A DNA stretch of 64,000 bases from a virus (Duplodnaviria > Caudoviricetes): positions 13,830 to 77,829 of the IMG/VR virus record IMGVR_UViG_3300021400_001324; one strand, 5' to 3'. The notes under the pieces were generated by a model that made no database searches, was not told the DNA's origin, and was given only the letters and a program-made list of their open reading frames with translations. Positions 6,221-32,644 of this stretch are shown in pieces. Both the position numbers and the translations under genes were made by a program. Every line of letters begins with the position of its first letter. The stretch's first letter is position 1.

Positions 6221-6895
6221 TTATTGGTTTTGCATCCAGGTTGGCTAATAACCTGTAAATCTATTACGTTTGTTATTATTTATAAACTACTATGCCTATA
6301 GTTCAGTATTAGCTTTCATATTTGCCATAGCCAAATCATTCTAAGCTCCTGCCATAGCAATCTAAGCGTTATTGTTACTATTGTTTATGTCTCGCATAGT
6401 ATCAAGATATTTTTTTTGCTTCTTCCAATCGTACATCGCAGTTATACCATTACCTACTGCTTCTGCTGTAGCTTGTGCAGCTTGTGCCCAATTAAAACCT
6501 CCTCCAGTTTGTTTTTTCTAAATTCCACCGTCTTTAAAATAAGAAGTTGTAGGAATCGCACCTTTATCAAACTTCTTGCCCTTCTCACATTTCTTACATT
6601 TGCCACCTTTTTTCATATAGCCTTCAGGACAAGCATTGTTAAGAGCTTTAATTCTATTTAGCTTAGCTCCCCTTGCTGCTTTTTGAGACTAACTTAAGGC
6701 TTTAATAACCCCATCAATACCCGCTTGTTTCCAAATCTAAAAAAGCTATTGTATTATCTTAGGCTATTCTTTAGCTAATTGCTATAGTTTTGTTTCAGTA
6801 TCTTCTCCAAATAACTGATTCTATATTATTTCTTGAGCGAACTGATTTAGTTCATTTTGGGATGATGCTCCACCCTGTTGATATTTTTTAATCAT
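6221..6895 (-). CDS. Gln-rich hypothetical (probable virion) protein, heavily TAG-recoded
   Basis: Starts MIKKYQQGG; CPEGYMKKGGKCKKC; more than 10 in-frame TAG; ends TAA. Confidence 0.7.
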
Positions 6896-11749: not shown

Positions 11750-12067
11750 ATGAACTTTTATAGTATAAACACTTTTTAGCACATTCCGTATTTTAAAAAC
11801 GGACATAAAATACATATAAAGAAAAGTAATCGTGGTAAGTTTACAGAATATTGTAATGGTAAGGTTACAGACGAATGTATTTAGAGAGGAAAGAATAGTA
11901 AAGATCCAAAAATTAGGAAAAGAGCCACTTTTGCAGCAAACGCAAGACGCTGGTCTAAAAAAGATGGAGGAACATTTAGTTTAAATATGCATTCTCCAGC
12001 TGTTTTCCCTGAAGTTACTTAGATGACCAATCATTGGTATGCAATAAAAAAGAAGTATGTTAAATGA
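11750..12067 (+). CDS. Basic hypothetical protein (IHIKxxNRGKFT family), TAG-recoded
   Basis: HIPYFKNGHKIHIKKSNRGKFTEYCNGKVTDECI*RGKNSKDPKIRKRATFAANARRW. Confidence 0.65.
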
Positions 12068-12770
12068 TAAGTTAGTAAAATTCAATAACATAGAATCTTA
12101 GAATTTAAATTTCATTCTAAATCTCCCAGAGCAATTATTAGATAATACTTATATTAATCCTTATTCAAACGTGAGTCTACAAATACCTGATGGACTTGGA
12201 TTTCTTGATACAGTGTTAAAACAAGAAGACTTTGATGTTAGTGAAGAATAGAATGTTAAAAATGAGTCTCCAATAAACAACATAAAGAAAAACGTAAAAA
12301 AGTATGTTAAAAATTGGTTAATGAAAAATCAAGGATTATCTAATGAACAAGCATCTGCACTAACTGGAGTATGGTGGGCTGAATCTCATCTTAATCCTGG
12401 AATTCACGAAGTTGGTAAAGAGAATAATCCTTATGCTGGAAAAGGTATTGCACAATGGACAGGTAGATAGAGATAGAAACATGCAGAAGATATATATAAA
12501 CAAATATATGGTAAATCTAAGTCTATAAAGGAAATGTCTTTAGATGAACAATTAAACGTTGCTATTACTGAATTTAAAGAACGTGGTACTTGGCAACAAT
12601 TCTTAAATGCTAAAGATATTAAAACAGCAACTGATGTCGTATGGAGAGGTTATGAAAATGGGTACAACACCTTAGCTTCTCATGAATCAATGAAGAAAAC
12701 TTATGGTAAAAATTATAATAAGCAATGGACTGATAGATTTAGATTTGCTCAAGAAATAAGTAGAATATAA
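12057..12770 (+). CDS. Phage-tail-lysozyme-like muramidase, TAG-recoded
   Basis: ALTGVWWAESHLNP...GKGIAQWTGR*R; includes track ORF 12534..12770 in frame. Confidence 0.7.
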
Positions 12771-13438
12771 TGGAATACGTAAGTTATAAACATGTAGAAC
12801 CGATAACGTTATCAAAATTTGAATTAGAAAGATTCTATAATCAACCTAGATTAGATTATACAGATATATATAATCCTGACTACGGAACTAAGATTTAGAA
12901 TGATAGTTTATATGACAATTTATTAGAAACAACTCCAACTAATAATCCAACAGTATAGCAATCTACACTTTTAAGTTCCATACAAAATCATTTAGGTGAA
13001 GTTTATAACAACGCAAAACGTTTAAAATCTGGATACTCAGATTGTTCTGGTTTTGTAAATAAAGTATTTAAAGATATGGGTATAGATTTAGGAGGTGCAT
13101 CTTCAATCTACATGTATAATAAATTAACAGATCACATTAACTATGATCAAGTACAACCTGGTGATTTAGTTTTTCTTACTCCTAAACAAACACATAGTGT
13201 TGCTGGAACAAAAAGACGTGCTGGTATAGATTCTTCTCATGTTGCAATCGTGGTTGAGAAACAAGGAACGCGTATTAAAGTTGCAGAGAATACAGGTTAT
13301 AAAGGAAGATCTGATTTTTCTTGGTACGAACTTGGTGGAGCTGATAAACCAAGCGGTAATGGAGTAATTAACTATTCAAAAGGAAACAAAGGTAAAAATA
13401 AAAACGAACTTTTAGGATTTGGTAGAATTCGAGTATAA
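12770..13438 (+). CDS. NlpC/P60 peptidoglycan endopeptidase, TAG-recoded
   Basis: DCSGFV catalytic Cys, PGDLVF, HVAIV catalytic His; the Cys lies upstream of the standard-code ORF start at 13076. Confidence 0.8.
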
Positions 13439-13736: not shown

Positions 13737-14183
13737 TTATGCGTCATAGTCATAGTCCTCGGGCAGTAGCCCATCATTTCCCTCTATAGACTCATCCTTA
13801 ATTACATTGCCTCCGGGATGAGCCTCATTATACTCTTCATTAGTCATCTGCTCCAGCGCGTTAATCTGGTCACGCAACGCCTGCCGCTCACGGTGCAGCT
13901 CCGCCACATCGTAGGGCGCGGCCTCACCCACGGCGGCGCACTCAGCCACCTTGATGACCTTGTAGTCCGTCTCGGCAAGCTGCATCTTGAGCGACTCGAT
14001 GCTCGCCATGCGCTCCTGCTCGGCCATGTCGCTCTCACTGGGCTGCGGAGGTGTCCACGGTAGATACCCTGCCTCTGCATACATCGCCTCGGTGGGGTTA
14101 ATCACCTGCCGACCGTCCTCCAACGTCAGCACCTTTGGGGCATAATCGCCCCGCTCGTTCTTGTAGTTGTAGTTGTATTTCAT
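13737..14183 (-). CDS. Tail-fibre assembly (XkdW-like) protein in the GC-rich cassette
   Basis: QLAETDYKVIKVAE...RQALRDQINALE. Confidence 0.6.
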   Translation of the reverse strand: MKYNYNYKNERGDYAPKVLTLEDGRQVINPTEAMYAEAGYLPWTPPQPSESDMAEQERMASIESLKMQLAETDYKVIKVAECAAVGEAAPYDVAELHRERQALRDQINALEQMTNEEYNEAHPGGNVIKDESIEGNDGLLPEDYDYDA

Positions 14184-21736: not shown

Positions 21737-24016
21737 TTAATTAATGAGACCTAATACTTTAGCAAAATAGTTAGCATATCTTCGTCTTATAGGAGATCCT
21801 TGACCTCCACTTCTTTCATAATGTTTCTCCCAAGCATCAGTGATAGCATCTATGTTTCTAAGATTTCTAGTAGCTTTATTAAAACCAGCAAATCTCTTAA
21901 AAAATTCTCTTTGCCATGGTATTTTATTACTGTCTTGTAATTTTCCCATTAAACCGTCTACTAAAAATCTCATTTGATGCGCTTTACTATAGCCTCCGTA
22001 ATTTTTAATAATCCAATTTTTAGCATCTGTTTGGTTTTGAGTCAATCCGTGATATTTACCATGATGGTTCGCATTAGGATCAAATGCACTTTCTAAAGCA
22101 ATGTTTCCCAATACTCCAACGGCTACATAAGGATTTATACCTGCAGCAACTAATTCTCTATAATAAGGTTCTGCTTTTTTCCACATAGCTTCGTTTTCTA
22201 CATCAACTCTAGATTTTCCACCTTTTGGTCCAACGTAAACTGTCTAATCTGGAAGTGTTAAAATTGGAACTCCTCCAAATTGGAATTTACGAGGGATTAA
22301 TTTTCTGCCTTGTTTTGCATAAGAAATATCATTAAGCTTACGCTATGGTAAATTGTAAGCAACTTCATTTAACATCTATATAAGTTTTTTTCTACTAATA
22401 CGCCCTAATCTATCACGAACCTGACGACTCCAAGTGTAACTATCTAAATTATCATCTTCTTTAAACACTTTATCTGGACTAATATTGTTATCTTTTCTAA
22501 ACTAATTTAAAGCAGCATATAATTCACTAGGACTAGTATAATAAGTATCCCTATTATCTGAATTAGATTTTTCGTTATCGTCTAAATCTTCCATTATCTT
22601 TGCGATAGCTATTTCCTACGGACTAAGAGTCCCACTTCTTTTTAAAGCGTGTGTAAATTCATGAACATCTGTTGAATCATCTGTATACGGTAAATATACA
22701 TAAGGGATTTGCGTTTCAAAATCTGGTTTTCTAATATAAACATGAGGAAAAGTATCAGTGGGATTAAGAGAATCTTCTGGAACCTTTTTTGTATAAAGTT
22801 CTGTATTTGCAAGTCGATTTAATTGAGATTCTATAGTTTCATCACTTCCTGCAGCTAATTTGTTTTGTTCAAACTATTCTTTTCTTTGAGGTAACCACCA
22901 ATGTAACCAGGTATTTTTCCCAACTAACGTAGGTTTTTCATTTAAAGAAGGTTGTATTGTTGTTTGTTTTTCTAGTTGTGGTGTTACAGTATTTTCGTTT
23001 ACCTATGAATTATTATTTTGATTTCTATGATACAATCTATTTTGTGCTTCTCCTTTTAATAAATTAATTGTGTTAATTAAATCATCTTCTGGAATAGACT
23101 CATAAAATTTTTGAAATCTTTCATTATATTCTGGAGAAGTTGCAATATTTAAATCTATATTGTTTTGTTCTGCAAACCGTTCGTATAAATGCTATCCTAA
23201 CAATCTAGTAATTTCAGCATTTAATTCTTCTTCGTTATTTAAGTTACCTCCAGATTGAAACTTGCGGGAAATTAGTTTCCCGCCTTGTTTTTTGAGCGAT
23301 TCATAATATTCAGCTCCTTTTGCAACTGCATTTTTATAAGCTGGCATTCTTTCTTTAGTTAAAGGTATGTAAGTAATAGTAGCATCTCTAAGTCCATCAG
23401 GTTCTTTTATAGTTTTAGCTCCAGGTACTTTTTTAGCTAATTGCTCTACAATAAAAGGAGTCATTATAGGTCTCCATGTAGAGTTAGATCCATCAAATTC
23501 ATTTCCTAAAACATCATCTAAAAATCGATAAGTACTATCTGAGCAATTATTAAATAAAAAATTGTAATTAGAATCATGCATTTTTCTAGAAACTAAAAGA
23601 TTTGGTCCGCGTACTTCAGAATGTGAACTGTAAGGATAAGATTCTCCAGCAAACGGATAAGTTATTACCTAAAGATGTGGTGTTCCATATTTAGTTATTG
23701 TAGGAAGATTTGCAATTTTTCCGTTTTCAAAATACTTATTAAATCGTTCATCAATTTGCTATTTTCTATAGTCCATATCTCTATTTATATACTGTAGTTC
23801 TATTGGATCATTTGAATGATATATAGATTCATTCCATTTCCAAGAATTGTATAACTCGTTAGGTACTGATCCGTTTCTATAAGGATCGTTATCATCTTGA
23901 TTTATAAAATAATATCCTTTATACTTATCCGCGTAATCTCTTAAAGCTTCATTTGCTTCTTTTACAGTACGATATTTTATAGGCATGTTAGGTTCTTTAT
24001 ATTTTTTAATCATCAC
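21737..24016 (-). CDS. 759-aa modular protein: permuted papain-like peptidase, HExxH metallopeptidase and phage-tail lysozyme; about 10 TAG
   Basis: SHSEV...YNFLFNNCSD; VHEFTHAL...ELYA; GNIALESAFDP...YHGLTQ; track ORFs 23759, 23192 and 21737 share one frame. Confidence 0.8.
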
Positions 24017-24049
24017 ATAGAGTTTACAAATTTTTATTAAATTATTAAT

Positions 24050-25012
24050 TTATTCATAAGGGCGTAATCGTCTTTTTGGCTCGTTTTTAGGTAGTGATGT
24101 TTTATATATAGCCCTATATAAACCTTGAGTGTCTTGACCATATTGGTTTTTCAATCTTGTATAATCTTCAGGATTAGTAGTTTCATAATTGCGAATATAA
24201 TTATAAGCTTCCTCATTATTCCAATCTGTCCCAAATACATTATTTACATAATCAGATACCAAATCAGGATTAGTTTTATTCTATTCTCTTAAAACATCGA
24301 TTAAGTTTTTATAGTCGTCAAATGTAACTCCATTATCTTCATTAAAAAATTCCGAATACAGAGGAGTATCATTTATACTTAATTCCCCAGGTTTCTATAT
24401 ATCAGATGACATTCTCTTTCTGAAAACATCCAGATTATTATTGTTTATAGAATACTTATTTTGTTGGTCCCTAAACTTAGCGTTAGTACCAGCTATCGAT
24501 GAAGCTAATATCGATGTAGGTAAATAATCATTCTACTTCATTCTCCCTTTTATATAGTCGCCTTTTTTATCATCACCTTTTCCTAACCCTATATCTTTAG
24601 TAAAATAACGTGTTTGTTTATTTAAAGCCATTCGCATTGCAGTAATTGCATTTTGATTGTATCCAAATTCAGAATTATCTTTATCTGCTTCGTACATATT
24701 ATAACGTGTATCTCCTCGTAAATCTTTAGGAGATGTGTATAAAGATGCGTATCTTTGTAGCTAATCCTACGCAAAATCATTTGTGATAGATGGCATTTGA
24801 GAATATTGCGTAACTGGTATTGGTTTCTAAACTTGTTCATTCTTCTGAGTGTTGTACACTTTTGCCCAATCTTCATCAGATTCGCCTTTCATTCGTGTTG
24901 TGTAACTTTTACCATTATAATCAAATATTTTTTTTCCTTCTTTTCTAGCATTTGCAAATGCTCTAGCAAAAGCGCTACTTCCTCTTCTAAATTTTGGTAT
25001 TAATGTATTCAT
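24050..25012 (-). CDS. 320-aa hypothetical (probable virion cargo) protein, TAG-recoded
   Basis: MNTLIPKFRRG, FARAFANARKEGKKIFDYNGKSYTT; joins track ORFs 24827 and 24050. Confidence 0.75.
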
Positions 25013-25013
25013 A

Positions 25014-26594
25014 TTATATTGTATAAAGTGGATTATTATAATCGTATCTGGATTGCTTTTCAGATTTTTTTATCTTATTTTTCTATATCAGTTCTTTTTT
25101 TCTTGGTTTTGAAGAATATGTTTTAGAACTTTGATTATTTTTTTTCTTAAGAGTTTTAGTCTATTCGTTTTCTTGTCTGTTCACACCTGATTTTTCTAAA
25201 CGCTGAGTTTTAATTTTATTTTTTATGGAATCGATTGTATTATTAAATATAGTAAATATATTTTTTTGAGATGTACTGGAACTATTTGATTTACGAGTTG
25301 CAATACTGCTTTTATTTGTCATACGAGTAGACTAATTAGTTGTTGATAATGTATACCAAGAATGCTTTGGTTCCTCCTTTTTTAAGTACTGTGTGTAATC
25401 AAACTTATATTTATCATAAGGATTATAATGTATAGCGTGATCAAGTTTTTCATAATGCTGTTTCTTTTCTTTAAACAGCTATTTAATATAATTTATTTTA
25501 GCAGATATATTCTTATCTACTCTTTCTCGTTGCTCTCTTATTTTTGTTTCTTCAGGAGATAAAATATATAATCCGTTTCCGGCAGATCCATTCAATCCCC
25601 TATATTGTATCCATGTATTTCTATCTATAAAACCACTATAAGTTCTTAATCCAGTACTATGTGATCCTAAATCAAAATAATATATTTCACACGGTTTGCC
25701 TCCATGTCGTTGTCTCATATCTTGTATTATAGCATCAATCTAATTTGCAGAACCTAAAGCTACCCTAGCCTCATCATCAATTTTTACAATACATCCACCT
25801 CCTGTAGTATGTCCGTACTAGTCGTCTCTTTTGTTTTTATCTCCAGAGTCACCAATTAATAAACCTCCACTAGTATTGCCATCACTATCAATTAAAACTG
25901 GATGTCCCTTAGACCAAACTATTTTGTTGTTTGCATCTCTCTAAAATCCCAAAACGTTTTTCCGTGTAGGCATATATGTAACTAAATCATTTGGTTGGAA
26001 GTTATCAAACTTAAGATTTCCGTATTTGTCTACTCCCATAAGTTTCCCACCGCCATACCAAGGTTTAGCTATTGAATAAGGTCTAAATGGTTCAAACGTA
26101 GTTATAATCATACCTGGTGTCTTCACAGGCTTCCAACTGATATCTTCAGGATTTCCTTTATATTCAACACCATCGTCTGTATACTATTTGATATTATTTC
26201 TTTTCGCATTATGTACTCCAAATCTAGTTTCCGACAAATTGACAGATCCCGGCAAAACATACTGATCTGGACGATGTTCTAACTAAATAGTATCAGTAGA
26301 AAACCATGTTGCAGGATATTTAGTTTGTGTTGTGTCCTATTGCTAAGGTATATATGCTGTAGATATAGGTTCTTTATCTGCGGTATGTTGCTAATAGGTT
26401 CGTACACCTTTATTCCAGACTAATTGGAAAATATCTGTAAATTTTCCATTCCTCCACCATTCTTTAACATCATCTGGAATCATATTTGAAATACCTTGAT
26501 TTATTTCCCTAGGATTATATATTCCATAATTTGGATTAAATGTACCTCCATATATAGGGTCATAAATATTCTTATTTTTTATTAAATCATCCAT
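25014..26594 (-). CDS. 526-aa hypothetical protein with a basic low-complexity C-terminus, TAG-recoded
   Basis: Track ORFs 26391, 25941 and 25479 are in frame; no TAA or TGA until 25014. Confidence 0.75.
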
Positions 26595-26625
26595 GTTAAA
26601 TTTACTTTCTTTTTAAGTTTTCATA

Positions 26626-29600
26626 TTATTTATACTTTCTAGGTATTAATCTTCCGCCTTTTTGATTAGATGTAGGTTGATTTAATTGAGATAAACCATA
26701 AGTTATACCAGTAAATATAGCTCCTTTTTTTAAAGCGCCTTTCCAAGAATTAACGTATTTTTGTGCCTACTCTAATGTTCCATTTCTCATTAAACGTACA
26801 TAATCGTTTAAATAATGACTATCCATCGATAGCATTAAATTTTGCATATCTTGTATAGACATATTATCTACAATTTGATCAAAATATTGCTTCTGTGTAC
26901 GTGCAGCAGTTTCGAAATCAATTCCTTTTTCACGAGCAATTCTGGCATAAATTTTAGTAACCATTTCCCAATTCATAGCTCTAGCATCTCTAGGATTCTA
27001 AGAATCCTTATCAACAATCTAATCTATTAATTTTCTATCATAAATATGATCTGGCTAACTTAATTTTCCATATAAAGAATTGCTATCTTTTGATAATACT
27101 TGTGTACTTTTAGCACGTGTTATCATATTCTAAACAATTCTATCTGTAGGATGTACTACACCTTCGTGAATCTATGTATAAAAATATGGTTTATTTTTAA
27201 TATGATTTATAACAATGTTAGATCCATTATAATCAGAGTAAAATCCTCCGATATGAGAAGTCTAATCTGAATTTATAACAGCTGCTGTTTTATCCTATTT
27301 AATTAAATCAAACATTCTTGGATAACCCTAAATAGTAATGTGACTTCCTCTACTAGGTCCAAACCAAACTAAAGAAGTTTCATTTGGATTTGTACCAGGT
27401 TTCCAATTGAAATTTTTCCAGCGTTCCTACATTAAATTTATGATAACTTTAGTTCTTTCATGCATCGGTAAATAACCTATTAACTAATACCTCGCATCAA
27501 TTTGTTGTGGTTTTTCTAATAACTCTAATCCTGAATTAGAATATCTTTTATTCCAATTCTAAATGGCTGTACTTAAATCTATTGTAGGGTATTCTGTATT
27601 AGACGATGACATATAAATATTTGGATCACTCCAATTTCTAGGTATTCTTAAATCATATGGGAGTATGTGTTTAGCATTTTTTGCATTAAAGTCGGGTAAA
27701 GCAAAATAATCATAATTTTCGTGTTCTTCTCCTCTCCAAAATGAATTTCTATCACTTTTAAGTAAACCTTGATTCTGTCTTTCAGCTTCTCGTAATACTG
27801 CCTTATTCTAAGCCAATCTAACATCATGTAAGGAACTACCTATCCTATCTTCTTTAGGGATTAACCATGAAAAAGGAGGAGGTGTGCCTGGTTTTCCTCC
27901 TGTAACTACAACTTCGTTAGTTATATCTCTAACAGCAGGTGTTCTTACAATAAATGCGTTTAAATGATTAACTTTTCCATCAACAAGATTATCGCTACTA
28001 ATTTTACTTCCACTTATAACATTTCCATTTTGTTTAGCATAGCTCCAATATGGATAGGATACCTAATTATCTACAACAAGACCTTTCCCAGATAAATTAT
28101 ATAAATATCCATCTTTAAAACTAGGTGCTAAAGTGGAAAAATCTGCTACTTCTATACCAGAATGGTATGGAGCCATAATTTCTCCATTCTAGTTAGCTAT
28201 GTATAAATATCTATCAGGACCCCAACCTTCTCCAATTCCAGTTCTATCTAAAAATAACGTGCCTAATATATTATCTTCAGATCCTCCAGATTTGTGATGA
28301 TTGGTTCTAAGTTGTGTATATGGTCTAGTATCGCCTCTAAATAATAACTAAGGTTCTCCCTATTCGTTTACTGCTGCAGTATTTCCACCTAATTCTTTTA
28401 TATGTTTATATAATGCTTGAGCAATTTCTTCATCAGTTATATCTGTATTTCCTACTAATCCATAACGTTCTCTCGCCTCTGGTACATATTTTCTTAGCTA
28501 TTCTCCATTAATTGAACCTTCTGGAATAGGTTCTCCGCCATATTCTTTAAACATTCTAACTGCATCTTCTCCTTGTAAATGTGAGTCAAGAGGTTTCCAT
28601 AAATCTCTAAATAATGGTGCTCCGCCCCTATCAGCTTCCATAGTAGCTAAGGTAAGCGGTTGATCACTAAACTACATTCTAGCTACATCTTCTGACATCA
28701 TATGTCTAGCAATAGCATTATATTGCGCATCGGTCATATCTGGGAACATCTATTTAAGATAGTCTGCTCCAATTTCACCGTGACCTTCTCCTGCGAACAT
28801 TTTACCGAAGTCGTGTCCTAACGCTGCAAACATCTAATCCTACTTTGTATATCCAGCAGGAGTAGGCATTTGCCAAGCTCTTTGTGCAACTTCCTTTGTA
28901 TGTAAGAATGTATTAGGATCTGTCTTATGCCATTCTGGATTTTCTAATCTCTAAGACATTCTCCAACCCCCTTGTCTATCAGCTTCTGCATTAGCAATTT
29001 GTAAAGCCTTTTGTACGTTTATAGTTCCATCAGGATTAACTACTTCATTAATAGAATGTTTTGGGCCAGTATATAAGAATCTAGTTTGTTCTGGTACAAA
29101 GTCAGCAGGCTTTAACTACTTTGATGGATTTGCTCGTACCTTCGCCCAAGGACTTATTGCTAATGTTTGAGGAGATTGTGCTTTTAATCCTGTAAGTTCG
29201 ATCTATCCTTTTGGTTCTAAAGTTATACCATTTACTACAGATACAATAGGATAATTATAAGTTGGAACTATTTGTCTATTTATATATCTACTTACTTGTC
29301 CTGGTGTAGGATTCCAATAATTTACTCCAGTTGCTTTCTAAAACTATAAAGCTAACTATTGTTCAGGAGTAAGAAAAGTGTTTGTTGATCCTAATTTAAA
29401 TCCAGTGCCACCTCCAACTAACATACCTGCTAATCCTCCTGCTGCTTGCCAACGAGGATCATCTGTAAATAATGAAACTGCTTTTGTTCCTAATTCATTT
29501 CCAGCATATCCTCCTAATATAGATGCCAATAGTGCAGGAAAGCCATACGATTGTAATACTGGACCAGAAAATCCCATAGATAATCCAACAGAAGTATTTA

Positions 29601-30087
29601 AAGCATTGGTTGTATTTTGTTGTTCAATTGCATCTCTTCCTTCCTAAGTCAAATAGTTAGGAGTATAATTAAATCCATTTCCTGTATTCCAAAAGAATCC
29701 ACCATTGTTTATATTATCTAAAGTTTTAGCTCTTGTTATAGCATTAGCATCTACAATTACTCCATTATTTTGAGTTGCAGCTTTAGCATTACGTACATCT
29801 GGATCAAGATCTGTCGCAGATTTTATTGCTTTCTAATCGATTAAGTTCTCAACTAAAGGTGATAATTTCTTATTTGTTCTTTGTATTACTTTTCTTTTAG
29901 CTTTATCTGCATTTCTTTGTGCTAATTTTGTTTGAGCTGCTACTCTAACAGGTTTATTCTATTTCGGATCAGAAGCAACTCTTACTAAAGCTGCTTCCAT
30001 TTCTTTATCAGCTTTTAATAAGAGTTGCTACTATATTGGAGCTGTCTATGTTATTTTACTTTGTTGTTTATATATTGGTTCTGGCAT
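26626..30087 (-). CDS. 1153-aa polyvalent protein: hydrophobic segment, HD domain, ART-like domain and HExxxH metallopeptidase-like domain
   Basis: WHKTDPNTFLHTKEV...AALGHDFGK...GHGEIGADYL; GEP*LLFRGD...PRNWSDPNIY; IHEGVVH; ends QKGGRLIPRKYK-TAA. Confidence 0.8.
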
Positions 30088-32644
30088 AATTATTATATTT
30101 TCTAGGAATTAGTTTTCCACCTTTTCGGTTAGATTGATTAAATTTAGATATACCATAACCTGCTGGAATAATAGTCCATACGTTTTTTAACAAGTTATCT
30201 ACAGATTCATCTGTGAAGTATTTTCTTAATTGTTTAATATTCCAACCATCTTTAAGGCCTTGAGATTTTGCAATATTACTTGCTATACCTCTTGCAGAAT
30301 ACTCCTAATTATCTTCCATGTATTTTAAAAAGTCTTGAATTTCTTTAAAACCAATTTCTCCGTCAGAAGTTTTAAAAACGTCTTCTGGAGCAATCTATTT
30401 TGCTAGTTCAAAATTTCCATCTTTTACGGCTTGATAAAAAGGTCGTAATTGAGGACGTAGTGCTTCATTATGTTTATACATTTCTGTTAAAATACTTGAC
30501 TATCGTTCTGGAATAGTTACATTACTTGCGCCTATATTTAAACTACTACCATGGCCTCCTAGTTCATGATATACTGTGTGTTTTATAGATTCTGGGTCAA
30601 TTAATTGTGCACGATTATTTAATTTTTGATTTAGTCTAATTAATGCTTGACCTCCGATATTTTGAGCATCACCATAAGTGTAGTTTCCTAAGTTTCTAAA
30701 TACTATAGGATGAGCGTGTTCCGCGTTTACGGCTCTAACAGCTGCTATCGCCCACGCCTATTCAGGAGTGGCTCCAGACTATATCAAATGATTATAATAA
30801 TCATCAGAATCAAAATACTATACCACATCATCTCTAGCTTCTGTTGCCCACTTTCTTCTAAGACCTCTTGGGAAGGAAATATCAAATTCTCCCGTCTTAG
30901 GATTATAAGTATATTCTGGTTCACTGGATCCATTTTTAATTGTATTTTGCCTCTTTATAAAACTGTTTCTAGTAAACGTAGGAATTTCTCGCATTTCTGT
31001 TTTAACTCCATTTATAATATTACTTTTTGGTGGCAGTTTAACTGAAGGATAAACGTTATACCCTGCTAACAAACGTCTGATTTGAGTTAATCTATGTGGA
31101 GTTAATGCAGAACGTGGTATTTCATCACCATATCCTACAGTAGTAATATACTCTATTAGCTCTTCATCAGATAATAATTTTCTACTTAATATGAAATCTC
31201 TTCTAGCTTCATCAGAAGCGTTGTTTAAATTATGTTCTTGCAAAATAACATCTCTAATATCACCTTTAAGTTGATTTCTTTCTATTTCTTGAACTTCTGG
31301 AAACGCTTCTTTTAACATTTTTCGGTATTCTTTAGATGTTCCAGTTATAGTCTAATCTACAAGATGATCTACTTCGTGTCTTAACACTCTTCTATGATTT
31401 CTTCCTTGTAATCCTCCAGATATCTATATTCTACCGTATCGTCCAAATAATGGGCTATTGTCAAACACTCCATACGAATACTTATCTACATTATCTGCAT
31501 ACCCTCTTTTAGAATCCCACTATCTGTATTTAATATTTTTTAAGATTTGATTAACTTTATCTATATCTTTTTGAGTTCTGTATGTAGTTCCTGCTAAGTT
31601 TTCATTTATCTAATCTATTACAATTCCAGGAATTTTATATTCTTTATAACCTTTTGGTTTTGGCATATTAGTATTTAAGGCACGATTCATATAATAAGGT
31701 AGAATATACGGTGCAATTTCAGATTTTATAGTATATGTCAATAAAGAAGGATCAATTCCGAGCATATTTCTAACATAATCGTTTACTGCAGTTTTAGTTG
31801 CATCGGATACTATAGAACTTTTTACAGTATTTGTTGCAGCTTGTTGTAAACCTTCTGCTGTAAGGTCGATTGCTTTACTTGTAGGTCCGGATATTAAATA
31901 CCCTGGATTGGTAAAATTCCATAATGTTTTTTGCCATTCTGGTAAACTTCTCCAATTTTCTCCACCACCAGCATTATATATAAGATGCCCAAAATTATCA
32001 TAACCTCCAAGTTGAGAAGCACCATTAAGTAATTCTCCACCTAAAGTTCCGTACATTAAAGCTTGACCAGTTGGAGTTGCTAATGCAGATGTTAACCAAG
32101 GAGCTAACGTTGCTCCTCCAATACCTGCTGCTGTAATAGCTAATGGTGCAACAACAAATGTTCCAGCTCCAGGAGTTAATTGGTTAGCTCTAGCATCCGC
32201 AGCTTTAACATCTGCTTCATGTTTCTCTTTACTTTGTTCATACTACCATTGTGCTTGCTCTTTAAATGTTTTATCTACATCTGCATTTTTAGCTATAGGA
32301 GCAGCAAGCTCTCTAGCATATCTATCTTCAAACGATTCTCCAGTGAGATGCCCTCTAGATTTGCCGTTTCCAAGTCCTTCTATTGTAATCTCAGGCATTC
32401 CCAATTCAAATGTAGGATTGCCATATTGTACAGCATAATCAGCGGCAGCGTTAGGATTATTACCTACAGTTACTATGTTACCGTTTTCATCAGTCCAGAC
32501 TTTATCCCCTGTTTGAACAGGAAGTCCTGTATTATAATCGTTGTATACAATATCTGTTTGTGGCATTGTTCTCCATTGATAGTTTCTTTTATAAGGCTAT
32601 CTTTCAATTGGAGAAGATGCATTCTCATATTTTTTAATTCTCAT
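30068..32644 (-). CDS. 858-aa polyvalent protein with a hydrophobic GxxxG segment and two HExxH-type motifs
   Basis: RHEVDHL; YHELGGHG...EYSAR; joins track ORFs 32243, 31610 and 30818; ends RKGGKLIPRKYNNYARTNI. Confidence 0.8.

Follow-up and report, generated by a model that had tools for sequence, protein, structure and literature searches.

We have analysed a window of 64,000 nucleotides (positions 13,830 to 77,829) from an uncultured crAss-like gut phage, virus record IMGVR_UViG_3300021400_001324 (Duplodnaviria; Caudoviricetes), in which a short peptide, here called the tag, recurs at the edges of exchangeable modules in large proteins. Its core is K-L-I-[PS]-[RK]-K-[FY], preceded by [KR]-x-G-[GR] if a module lies upstream and followed by Q-x-G-G if one lies downstream, and the same element is found in three placements: as a C-terminal tail, as an N-terminal leader (M..IKKY.. 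or M..LIPKF..) and as a joint between modules. The tags sit at true domain boundaries, they are conserved at the peptide level and not as a DNA repeat, and the gain, loss and fusion of modules in relatives have their endpoints inside them. The tagged "polyvalent" late proteins are very probably virion cargo injected with the DNA, and we hold, at about even confidence, that the tag is a putative address or docking handle on this modular cargo, read in trans.

Four tag copies in a recoded gene block

For all translations of the region, TAG has been read as glutamine (TAG=Q). Translation with table 11 yields many short open reading frames (ORFs) only; with TAG=Q the region gives five consecutive minus-strand genes for proteins of 858, 1153, 526, 320 and 759 amino acids (aa), placed upstream of tail, terminase and portal genes that share this code. 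The portal (phrog_6547, PF16510) and large terminase (phrog_6681) genes are on the same strand as the block. Proteins of the window are named here by their aa length (W759, W858, W1153, W320, W526 and W224).

The earlier note on this DNA had counted four occurrences of the motif, two between the three domains of W759 and two at the C-terminal ends of the two largest proteins. Whether the window or the complete 77.8-kb record is translated in six frames with TAG=Q, the strict pattern G[GR][KR]LI[PS]RK[FY] matches exactly four times, always inside proteins of the five-gene block, and the placements are as described. In W759 (21737-24016, minus strand, as are all genes and tags of the block), copy 1, the 16-mer KKQGGKLISRKFQSGG (23246-23293, strict match 23258-23284; residues 242-257), joins domain 1 to a cassette with an HExxH motif (residues 258-566), and copy 2, AKQGRKLIPRKFQFGG (22271-22318, strict match 22283-22309; residues 567-582), joins this cassette to a Phage_lysozyme2 domain (residues 614-755). 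Copy 3, QKGGRLIPRKYK (26629-26664, strict match 26632-26658), forms the final 12 residues of W1153 (26626-30087), and copy 4, RKGGKLIPRKY (30095-30127, strict match 30095-30121), occupies residues 840-850 of W858 (30068-32644), 8 residues before the stop. The composition-based expectation over six frames is 2.8e-5 for the strict motif, which was observed four times, and 0.024 for the six-residue core. A weight matrix trained on relatives' tags only gives the window copies 27-31 bits, against 8.9 bits for the 1e-5 threshold, and over 29,296 residues of the proteome it detected nothing else convincing.

Related N-terminal starts, which the earlier note had listed as single examples, are real as a class. 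The pattern ^M.{0,4}[ILW][IK][KP][KR]?[FY], written after the window examples had been seen, matches 4 of the 91 ORFs with a length of 100 aa or more, where the null gives a mean of 0.19 and a maximum of 2, and in relatives it matches 14 of 163 proteins against a null of 0.22. The four window proteins are W858 (MRIKKYE, 32624-32644), W759 (MMIKKYK, 23996-24016), W320 (24050-25012), which opens with the variant MNTLIPKFRRG (24980-25012), and W224 (6221-6895, minus strand), which is encoded among head-assembly genes and starts MIKKYQQGG (6869-6895).

At the nucleotide level, pairs of the four copies are identical at 18-22 of 27 positions, match without interruption over at most 6-10 nt and differ synonymously in 3-5 of the nine codons. 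Because the copies differ at synonymous sites and have low nucleotide identity, it is the peptide, not the DNA, that is under selection.

A HMMER search of W759 against 1.84 billion representatives has provided separate sets of stand-alone homologs for residues ~20-257, ~249/363-583 and ~593-756, the last being the Phage_lysozyme2 domain (PF18013). Stand-alone homologs of domain 1 stop where copy 1 starts (P0171, for example, ends ...YYESL), those of the cassette end with the tag of copy 2, and stand-alone lysozymes open with the same tag. In the AlphaFold2 (AF2) model of W759 residues 240-590, the block-mean predicted local distance difference test score (pLDDT) of the tags is 43-60 vs 85-95 for the core, so that the tag is predicted to lie in unstructured, flexible segments. 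The HExxH is invariant in the middle cassette family. A VIA-wide structural search with the cassette model returned weak zinc metallopeptidase rows (ECE-1, PepO, Zmp1 and PPEP-2; Z 4.5-4.6 over 128-161 residues), Foldseek of the model against PDB returned nothing at E<=0.001, and the cassette has no Pfam family match.

Tagged relatives and exchange of modules

The tag is widespread among relatives of these proteins, mostly at their ends. Nine relatives of W858 end in KGGKLIPRK-like tails. Among the stand-alone homologs of the HExxH cassette, about 20 (25-40% identity) have a C-terminus that reads YA[KR]xGxKLIP[RK]K plus 0-8 basic or aromatic residues; when ten of these sequences were aligned, the tail positions Y, A, G, K and L hardly varied, in contrast to the spacer in front of them. 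Among 164 non-redundant relatives, the core was found 17 times within 22 residues of the C-terminus, against an expectation of 0.6 and at most 4 in 500 shuffles, and four times in the first 12 residues (0.33 expected), with no general excess at internal positions. Since tags might aid the retrieval of relatives, a recount has been made for the 77 matches to the lysozyme domain, whose aligned region excludes the tag. This set contained nine C-terminal tags (0.47 expected) and four N-terminal tags (0.12 expected), such as MKIKPKFQQGG.., MNQLIPKYKGG.. and ..NGGKLIKRYSQW... Segments beside the tag fall into 16 BLAST-unrelated clusters before it and 12 after it.

According to the earlier note, breakpoints in relatives should fall at the motif, and they do so in three cases (P0140, P0142 and P0002). 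P0140, which has seven member sequences, consists of W759 residues 1-257 (88% identity) and 565-759 (97%) with a single chimeric tag, KKQGGRLIPRKFQFGG, at the joint. Since P0140 is without the cassette and retains one chimeric tag, the 309-aa HExxH cassette is an insertion or deletion whose ends lie within the two tags. In P0142, domain 1 is joined to domain 3 via KKQGGKLTPRKFQSGG, and P0002 is composed of the C-module of W858, then RKGGKLIPRKFQFGG, and then a lysozyme domain. Relatives of W858 span only parts of it and mix its modules with those of W1153 and W759; the modules of W1153 likewise reappear in other combinations.

A second junction peptide, TF[TG]NSFIKRQ, marks another breakpoint. 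It is located at ~30950-30975 (minus strand; W858 residues ~556-566, with NSFIKRQ near residue 562), and past it W858, P0003 and P0005 run into three different modules. Approximately 100 near-identical relatives of W1153, 644-652 aa in length (P0022-P0118 and L053-L057), are encoded by contigs of 140-190 kb that use TAG=Q. Their sequences start MKWIPKYQKAGKLNF and stop at ...LPFLNNSQK, where other members of the family go on with GGK. The gene upstream of them opens with a module related to the crAss001 protein gp45 (..GIPYLAKGSGIHIKKENRGKFTE), which is described below. Read-through past ...LNNSQK in the 652-aa family was considered and rejected, as none of the frames has a tag after the TGA stop.

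Wider searches with the window sequences gave little. A tblastn search of W759 against 50,697 phage records gave no match, and a search of IMG/VR for related loci with W759, W1153 and W858 found none. When the strict motif was back-translated and scanned over IMG/VR, the one match (L001) was a chance GGKFIPSKF in an unrelated contig.

The crAss001 cargo protein gp45 and neighbouring genes

In distant relatives, a module of ~65 aa occupies the place of the tag. It starts QKQGGKMNILEFLKNGSG, continues as IHIKK..KGKFT.YCGGKVT..C..RKRATFA.NARKWKH and ends K.GG. A free-standing module of this type is encoded in the window by a 105-aa ORF (11750-12067, plus strand), which matches residues 364-428, a conserved central module, of gp45 (cargo protein 1 of Bacteroides phage crAss001; PDB 7QOG chain M) at E=3e-18, as well as gp45 homologs in 57 phage records. 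The earlier note had placed its HIPYFKNG among the related starts; this peptide belongs to the leader of the free-standing gp45-type module, which aligns with the tag. The leader pattern of such modules, GGK-x5/6-[FL][KQ]xG[GS], aligns with the window tag, and anchored rows show KQGGK-LISRK-FQSGG in the window, KQGGK-INVIEQ-FKSGG in P0013 and KQGGK-MNILEF-LKNGSG in the module leader. Of the gp45-type module, W759, W858 and W1153 hold only the leader-like tag. When the free module was modelled with AlphaFold, its helical body had a pLDDT of 72-92 and its leader one of 30-39; the tag is therefore a flexible peptide and lies outside any fold.

Further points concern the comparison with gp45. The protein gp45 has KGGKV 15 residues from its C-terminus, its DAC15 homolog has the module twice, and the KLIPRK core is absent from gp45. 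Residues 156-188 of W858, a hydrophobic segment (mean hydropathy 1.8 over 19 residues), resemble the predicted N-proximal helix of gp45. In the text of the crAss001 structural atlas used here (Bayfield et al., 2023, PMC10172136), gp45 residues 364-428 are located in an unresolved connector before the portal-bound domain 425-552 (residues 246-424 being unresolved). Cargo, of which a virion has 6-12 copies, is ordered there only in short stretches that dock on the portal, ring and muzzle proteins, and no tag is described.

Directly after the module gene follow two overlapping genes, which encode a 237-aa Phage_lysozyme2 protein and a 222-aa NlpC/P60 protein (12057-13438, plus strand). The last codons of the module gene (..AIKKKYVK) contain the next start codon, so that 11750-13438 holds three overlapping plus-strand genes. 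From its sequence, this trio looks like a split form of cargo proteins that combine the module with wall hydrolases and are fused elsewhere (P0173; the "tail lysozyme" annotation of H34). Several proteins (such as P0138, P0244 and L008:2460-4238) end exactly at ..NARKWKH, before the K.GG of the module, and gene ends therefore also match the far edge of the module.

The genes of W858 and W1153 share an overlap of 20 nt (30068-30087, minus strand), in which the start codon of W1153 lies 8 nt past tag copy 4 in the +1 frame, and the pair of module and lysozyme genes (12057-12067) has likewise a +1 overlap. A programmed frameshift at these two sites was dropped as a candidate: both downstream frames are +1, and the overlaps are the sole evidence. 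The codons of K-G-G (AAAGGTGGA) were also considered as a Shine-Dalgarno sequence and rejected, because the next start codon is ~33 nt away.

In addition to the N-terminal tag, W224 contains further peptides like the Gly-Gly junctions (MKKGGK, SYFKDGG and KKQTGGG), and TAG occurs in frame 13 times in its gene; it may be a small cargo protein or resemble a scaffold protein. W858 has two motifs like metal sites, RHEVDH and YHELGGH; distant relatives keep the latter in their C-module, with VFHELGGHGSS as the consensus (alignment A4). In searches of Pfam and PHROGs, no family was assigned to the gp45-type module, W224, W320, W526, W858 or W1153. From an estimated completeness of ~44% for the 77.8-kb record, it is probable that the phage is a crAss-like virus with TAG recoding and a genome of about 180 kb; the missing part may encode its RNA polymerase and its gp45 ortholog.

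Possible roles of the tag

The complete core is present at the ends of single-domain proteins, on both products of split genes, beside unrelated folds and in segments modelled as disordered, and these properties argue for a linear motif read in trans rather than a mere hinge. The reader would be a putative site in the portal-proximal assembly or the tail lumen, which would load each module into the particle or tether it there; in crAss001, whose docked cargo segments are a precedent, the 6-12 cargo copies per virion make the portal or tail a more likely place than the shell. With a common handle at every module edge, in-frame fusions, splits and insertions or deletions of cassettes would all give working proteins, and this is a likely reason why cassettes are exchanged at the tag, which would have become a preferred exchange point as a result of the shared handle. 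Like the T4 targeting sequence, the tag may be removed once it has served, although the data do not require this. The idea of a capsid-targeting signal in the earlier note fits the sequence pattern, with unrelated modules, copies at both termini and at joints, predicted flexibility and a gp45-related segment.

Several observations weigh against this reading of the tag as a docking handle on cargo. A phmmer search against PDB sequences gave no match of W858, W1153 or W759 to solved cargo, including the portal-bound domain of gp45, and PF25725 (crAss_CARG1) has no match at E<=1 in the record, about 44% complete as it is; it is thus from context and from relatives that the tagged proteins are assigned to the cargo. 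The KLIP-type tag was not found at the IMG/VR loci of a distant branch of the HExxH family (L004-L052), and it may be specific to one lineage, judging from the sequences compared. Neither the matrix nor the N-terminal pattern identified a clear tag in W526 (25014-26594), a protein of the same gene block, or at the N-terminus of W1153. The counts of tagged relatives are of proteins that share ancestry and not of independent events, and the N-terminal pattern, as stated above, was written with the window examples in view.

The tag could instead be a maturation site, at which a phage protease, for instance the HExxH module, would separate the modules of the polyproteins, either inside the particle or once injected, the terminal copies being removed pro-peptides. 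Internal and N-terminal tags mostly end in Q-x-G-G, a trait shared with Gly-Gly processing sites. The invariant HExxH of the middle cassette and its weak structural matches to zinc metallopeptidases agree with this reading, as do natural gene splits at the tag, which yield the same products as cutting would, and Iyer et al. (2017, PMC5512222) predict that polyvalent proteins are processed by zincin-like peptidase domains. We nevertheless consider cleavage as the primary role rather unlikely. Single-domain proteins at 25-40% identity keep a complete tag at the extreme C-terminus, with no downstream module to release; both halves of split genes hold the KLI..K[FY] core and not complementary half-sites; the HExxH family has only G-x-K in place of the upstream Gly-Gly; the AF2 model gives no confident placement of the cassette tail in its own cleft; and the crAss001 atlas text that was searched is silent on cutting of cargo (PMC10172136). 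Terminal tags on single-domain proteins are thus left unaccounted for by cleavage, unless the tag is used first and then clipped as in T4. That the tag is a passive hinge, a flexible linker spread by duplication and shuffling of modules and having no reader, seems improbable to us. It does lie in low-confidence, non-globular and glycine-flanked segments, and homologous relatives could share linkers by ancestry; however, most copies in relatives are at the extreme end of a protein, where a hinge is superfluous, the L-I-P-[RK]-K-[FY] core exceeds the adjacent spacer in conservation and approximately equals the catalytic motif in the ten-sequence alignment, and the identical core stands beside BLAST-unrelated modules.

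The earlier note had also proposed that the repeated coding DNA acts as a homology joint for the shuffling of cassettes, the peptide being a by-product of a substrate for homologous recombination. Part of this claim stands, since cassette insertions, deletions and fusions in close relatives (P0140, P0142 and P0002) end inside the tag and that of P0140 is chimeric. The DNA mechanism does not agree with the low identity of the copies (18-22 of 27 nt, no exact run above 10 nt and 3-5 synonymous changes in nine codons), with the retention of the tag at the termini of single-domain genes, or with the fact that the strict back-translated pattern is essentially missing from IMG/VR, and we regard it as very improbable. 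A function after injection, in which the basic and aromatic tail would bind DNA, membrane or a host factor in the cell instead of serving virion loading, is in our estimate about as improbable as a hinge. Lys, Arg and aromatic residues abound in the tails (KLIPKKFKL, KLIKRYSQW and GGKLRKKKK), and a figure legend of the crAss001 atlas has cargo stored in association with DNA (PMC10172136). Against this, one host target is unlikely for wall hydrolases, the HExxH module and proteins with a membrane segment alike, and the hydrophobic L-I-P part has more specificity than a charge patch.

The docking-handle reading has parallels in known systems. The capsid targeting sequence of the T4 internal proteins is a short common peptide on unrelated proteins that are located inside the head and injected; it is strictly N-terminal and is cut off by the prohead protease at L/I-x-E. 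The window tag differs from it in sequence and in being also a C-terminal tail and an internal joint: an N-terminal variant is found on 4 of 91 ORFs, but the element is C-terminal and internal as well. In the Pfam search, no prohead protease was found among the late genes of the window, which belongs to an incomplete record. Encapsulin cargo targeting peptides (PMC7925596) are conserved peptides of ~10 residues that follow a flexible linker at the terminus of various cargo enzymes and are read by an HK97-fold compartment; the analogy is one of architecture only, there being no sequence similarity to the tag.

Another comparison is with the polyvalent proteins (Iyer, Burroughs, Anand, de Souza and Aravind, 2017, PMC5512222), which are large multi-domain proteins of phages with portal-terminase packaging, contain wall hydrolase, HExxH and other modules in many orders and are predicted to be delivered with the DNA. 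The window proteins share the modular build and the packaging system: the domains of W759 stand alone elsewhere and the modules of W858, W1153 and W759 are recombined, giving at least two unrelated effector-type domains in variable order, and the window encodes portal and terminase. As for signature domains (zincin-like peptidase, ART or wall hydrolase), PF18013 is present in W759, ART-PolyVal (PF18760) in relatives only, and the HExxH cassette has weak zincin-like structural matches and none in Pfam. Iyer et al., in whose text neither "linker" nor "crAss" occurs, describe no conserved junction or terminal peptide. Full-text literature searches found no paper on such a tag on crassvirus cargo, and none linking Crassvirales to polyvalent proteins. 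New here are the KLIPRK-type variant, the chimeric tag found at a clean insertion or deletion of a cassette, and the fact that the tag can be aligned to the leader of the gp45-type module.

Crassviruses are the most abundant human gut phages, and their particles hold megadaltons of injected protein. A broader proposal, which we make only tentatively, is that the tag is a portable, position-independent putative loading signal of crassviruses, by which any module flanked by it would be recruited to the cargo zone of portal and tail and injected, the central module of gp45 being an elaborated handle. If this is true, the signal would account for the fast turnover of injected effectors and for the selection of cargo for packaging. 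The presence of the tag at exchangeable modules provides a testable way into cargo selection and helps to account for the renewal of injected enzyme sets, and it gives annotators a simple marker of cargo genes and of module borders in recoded genomes that are otherwise impossible to annotate.

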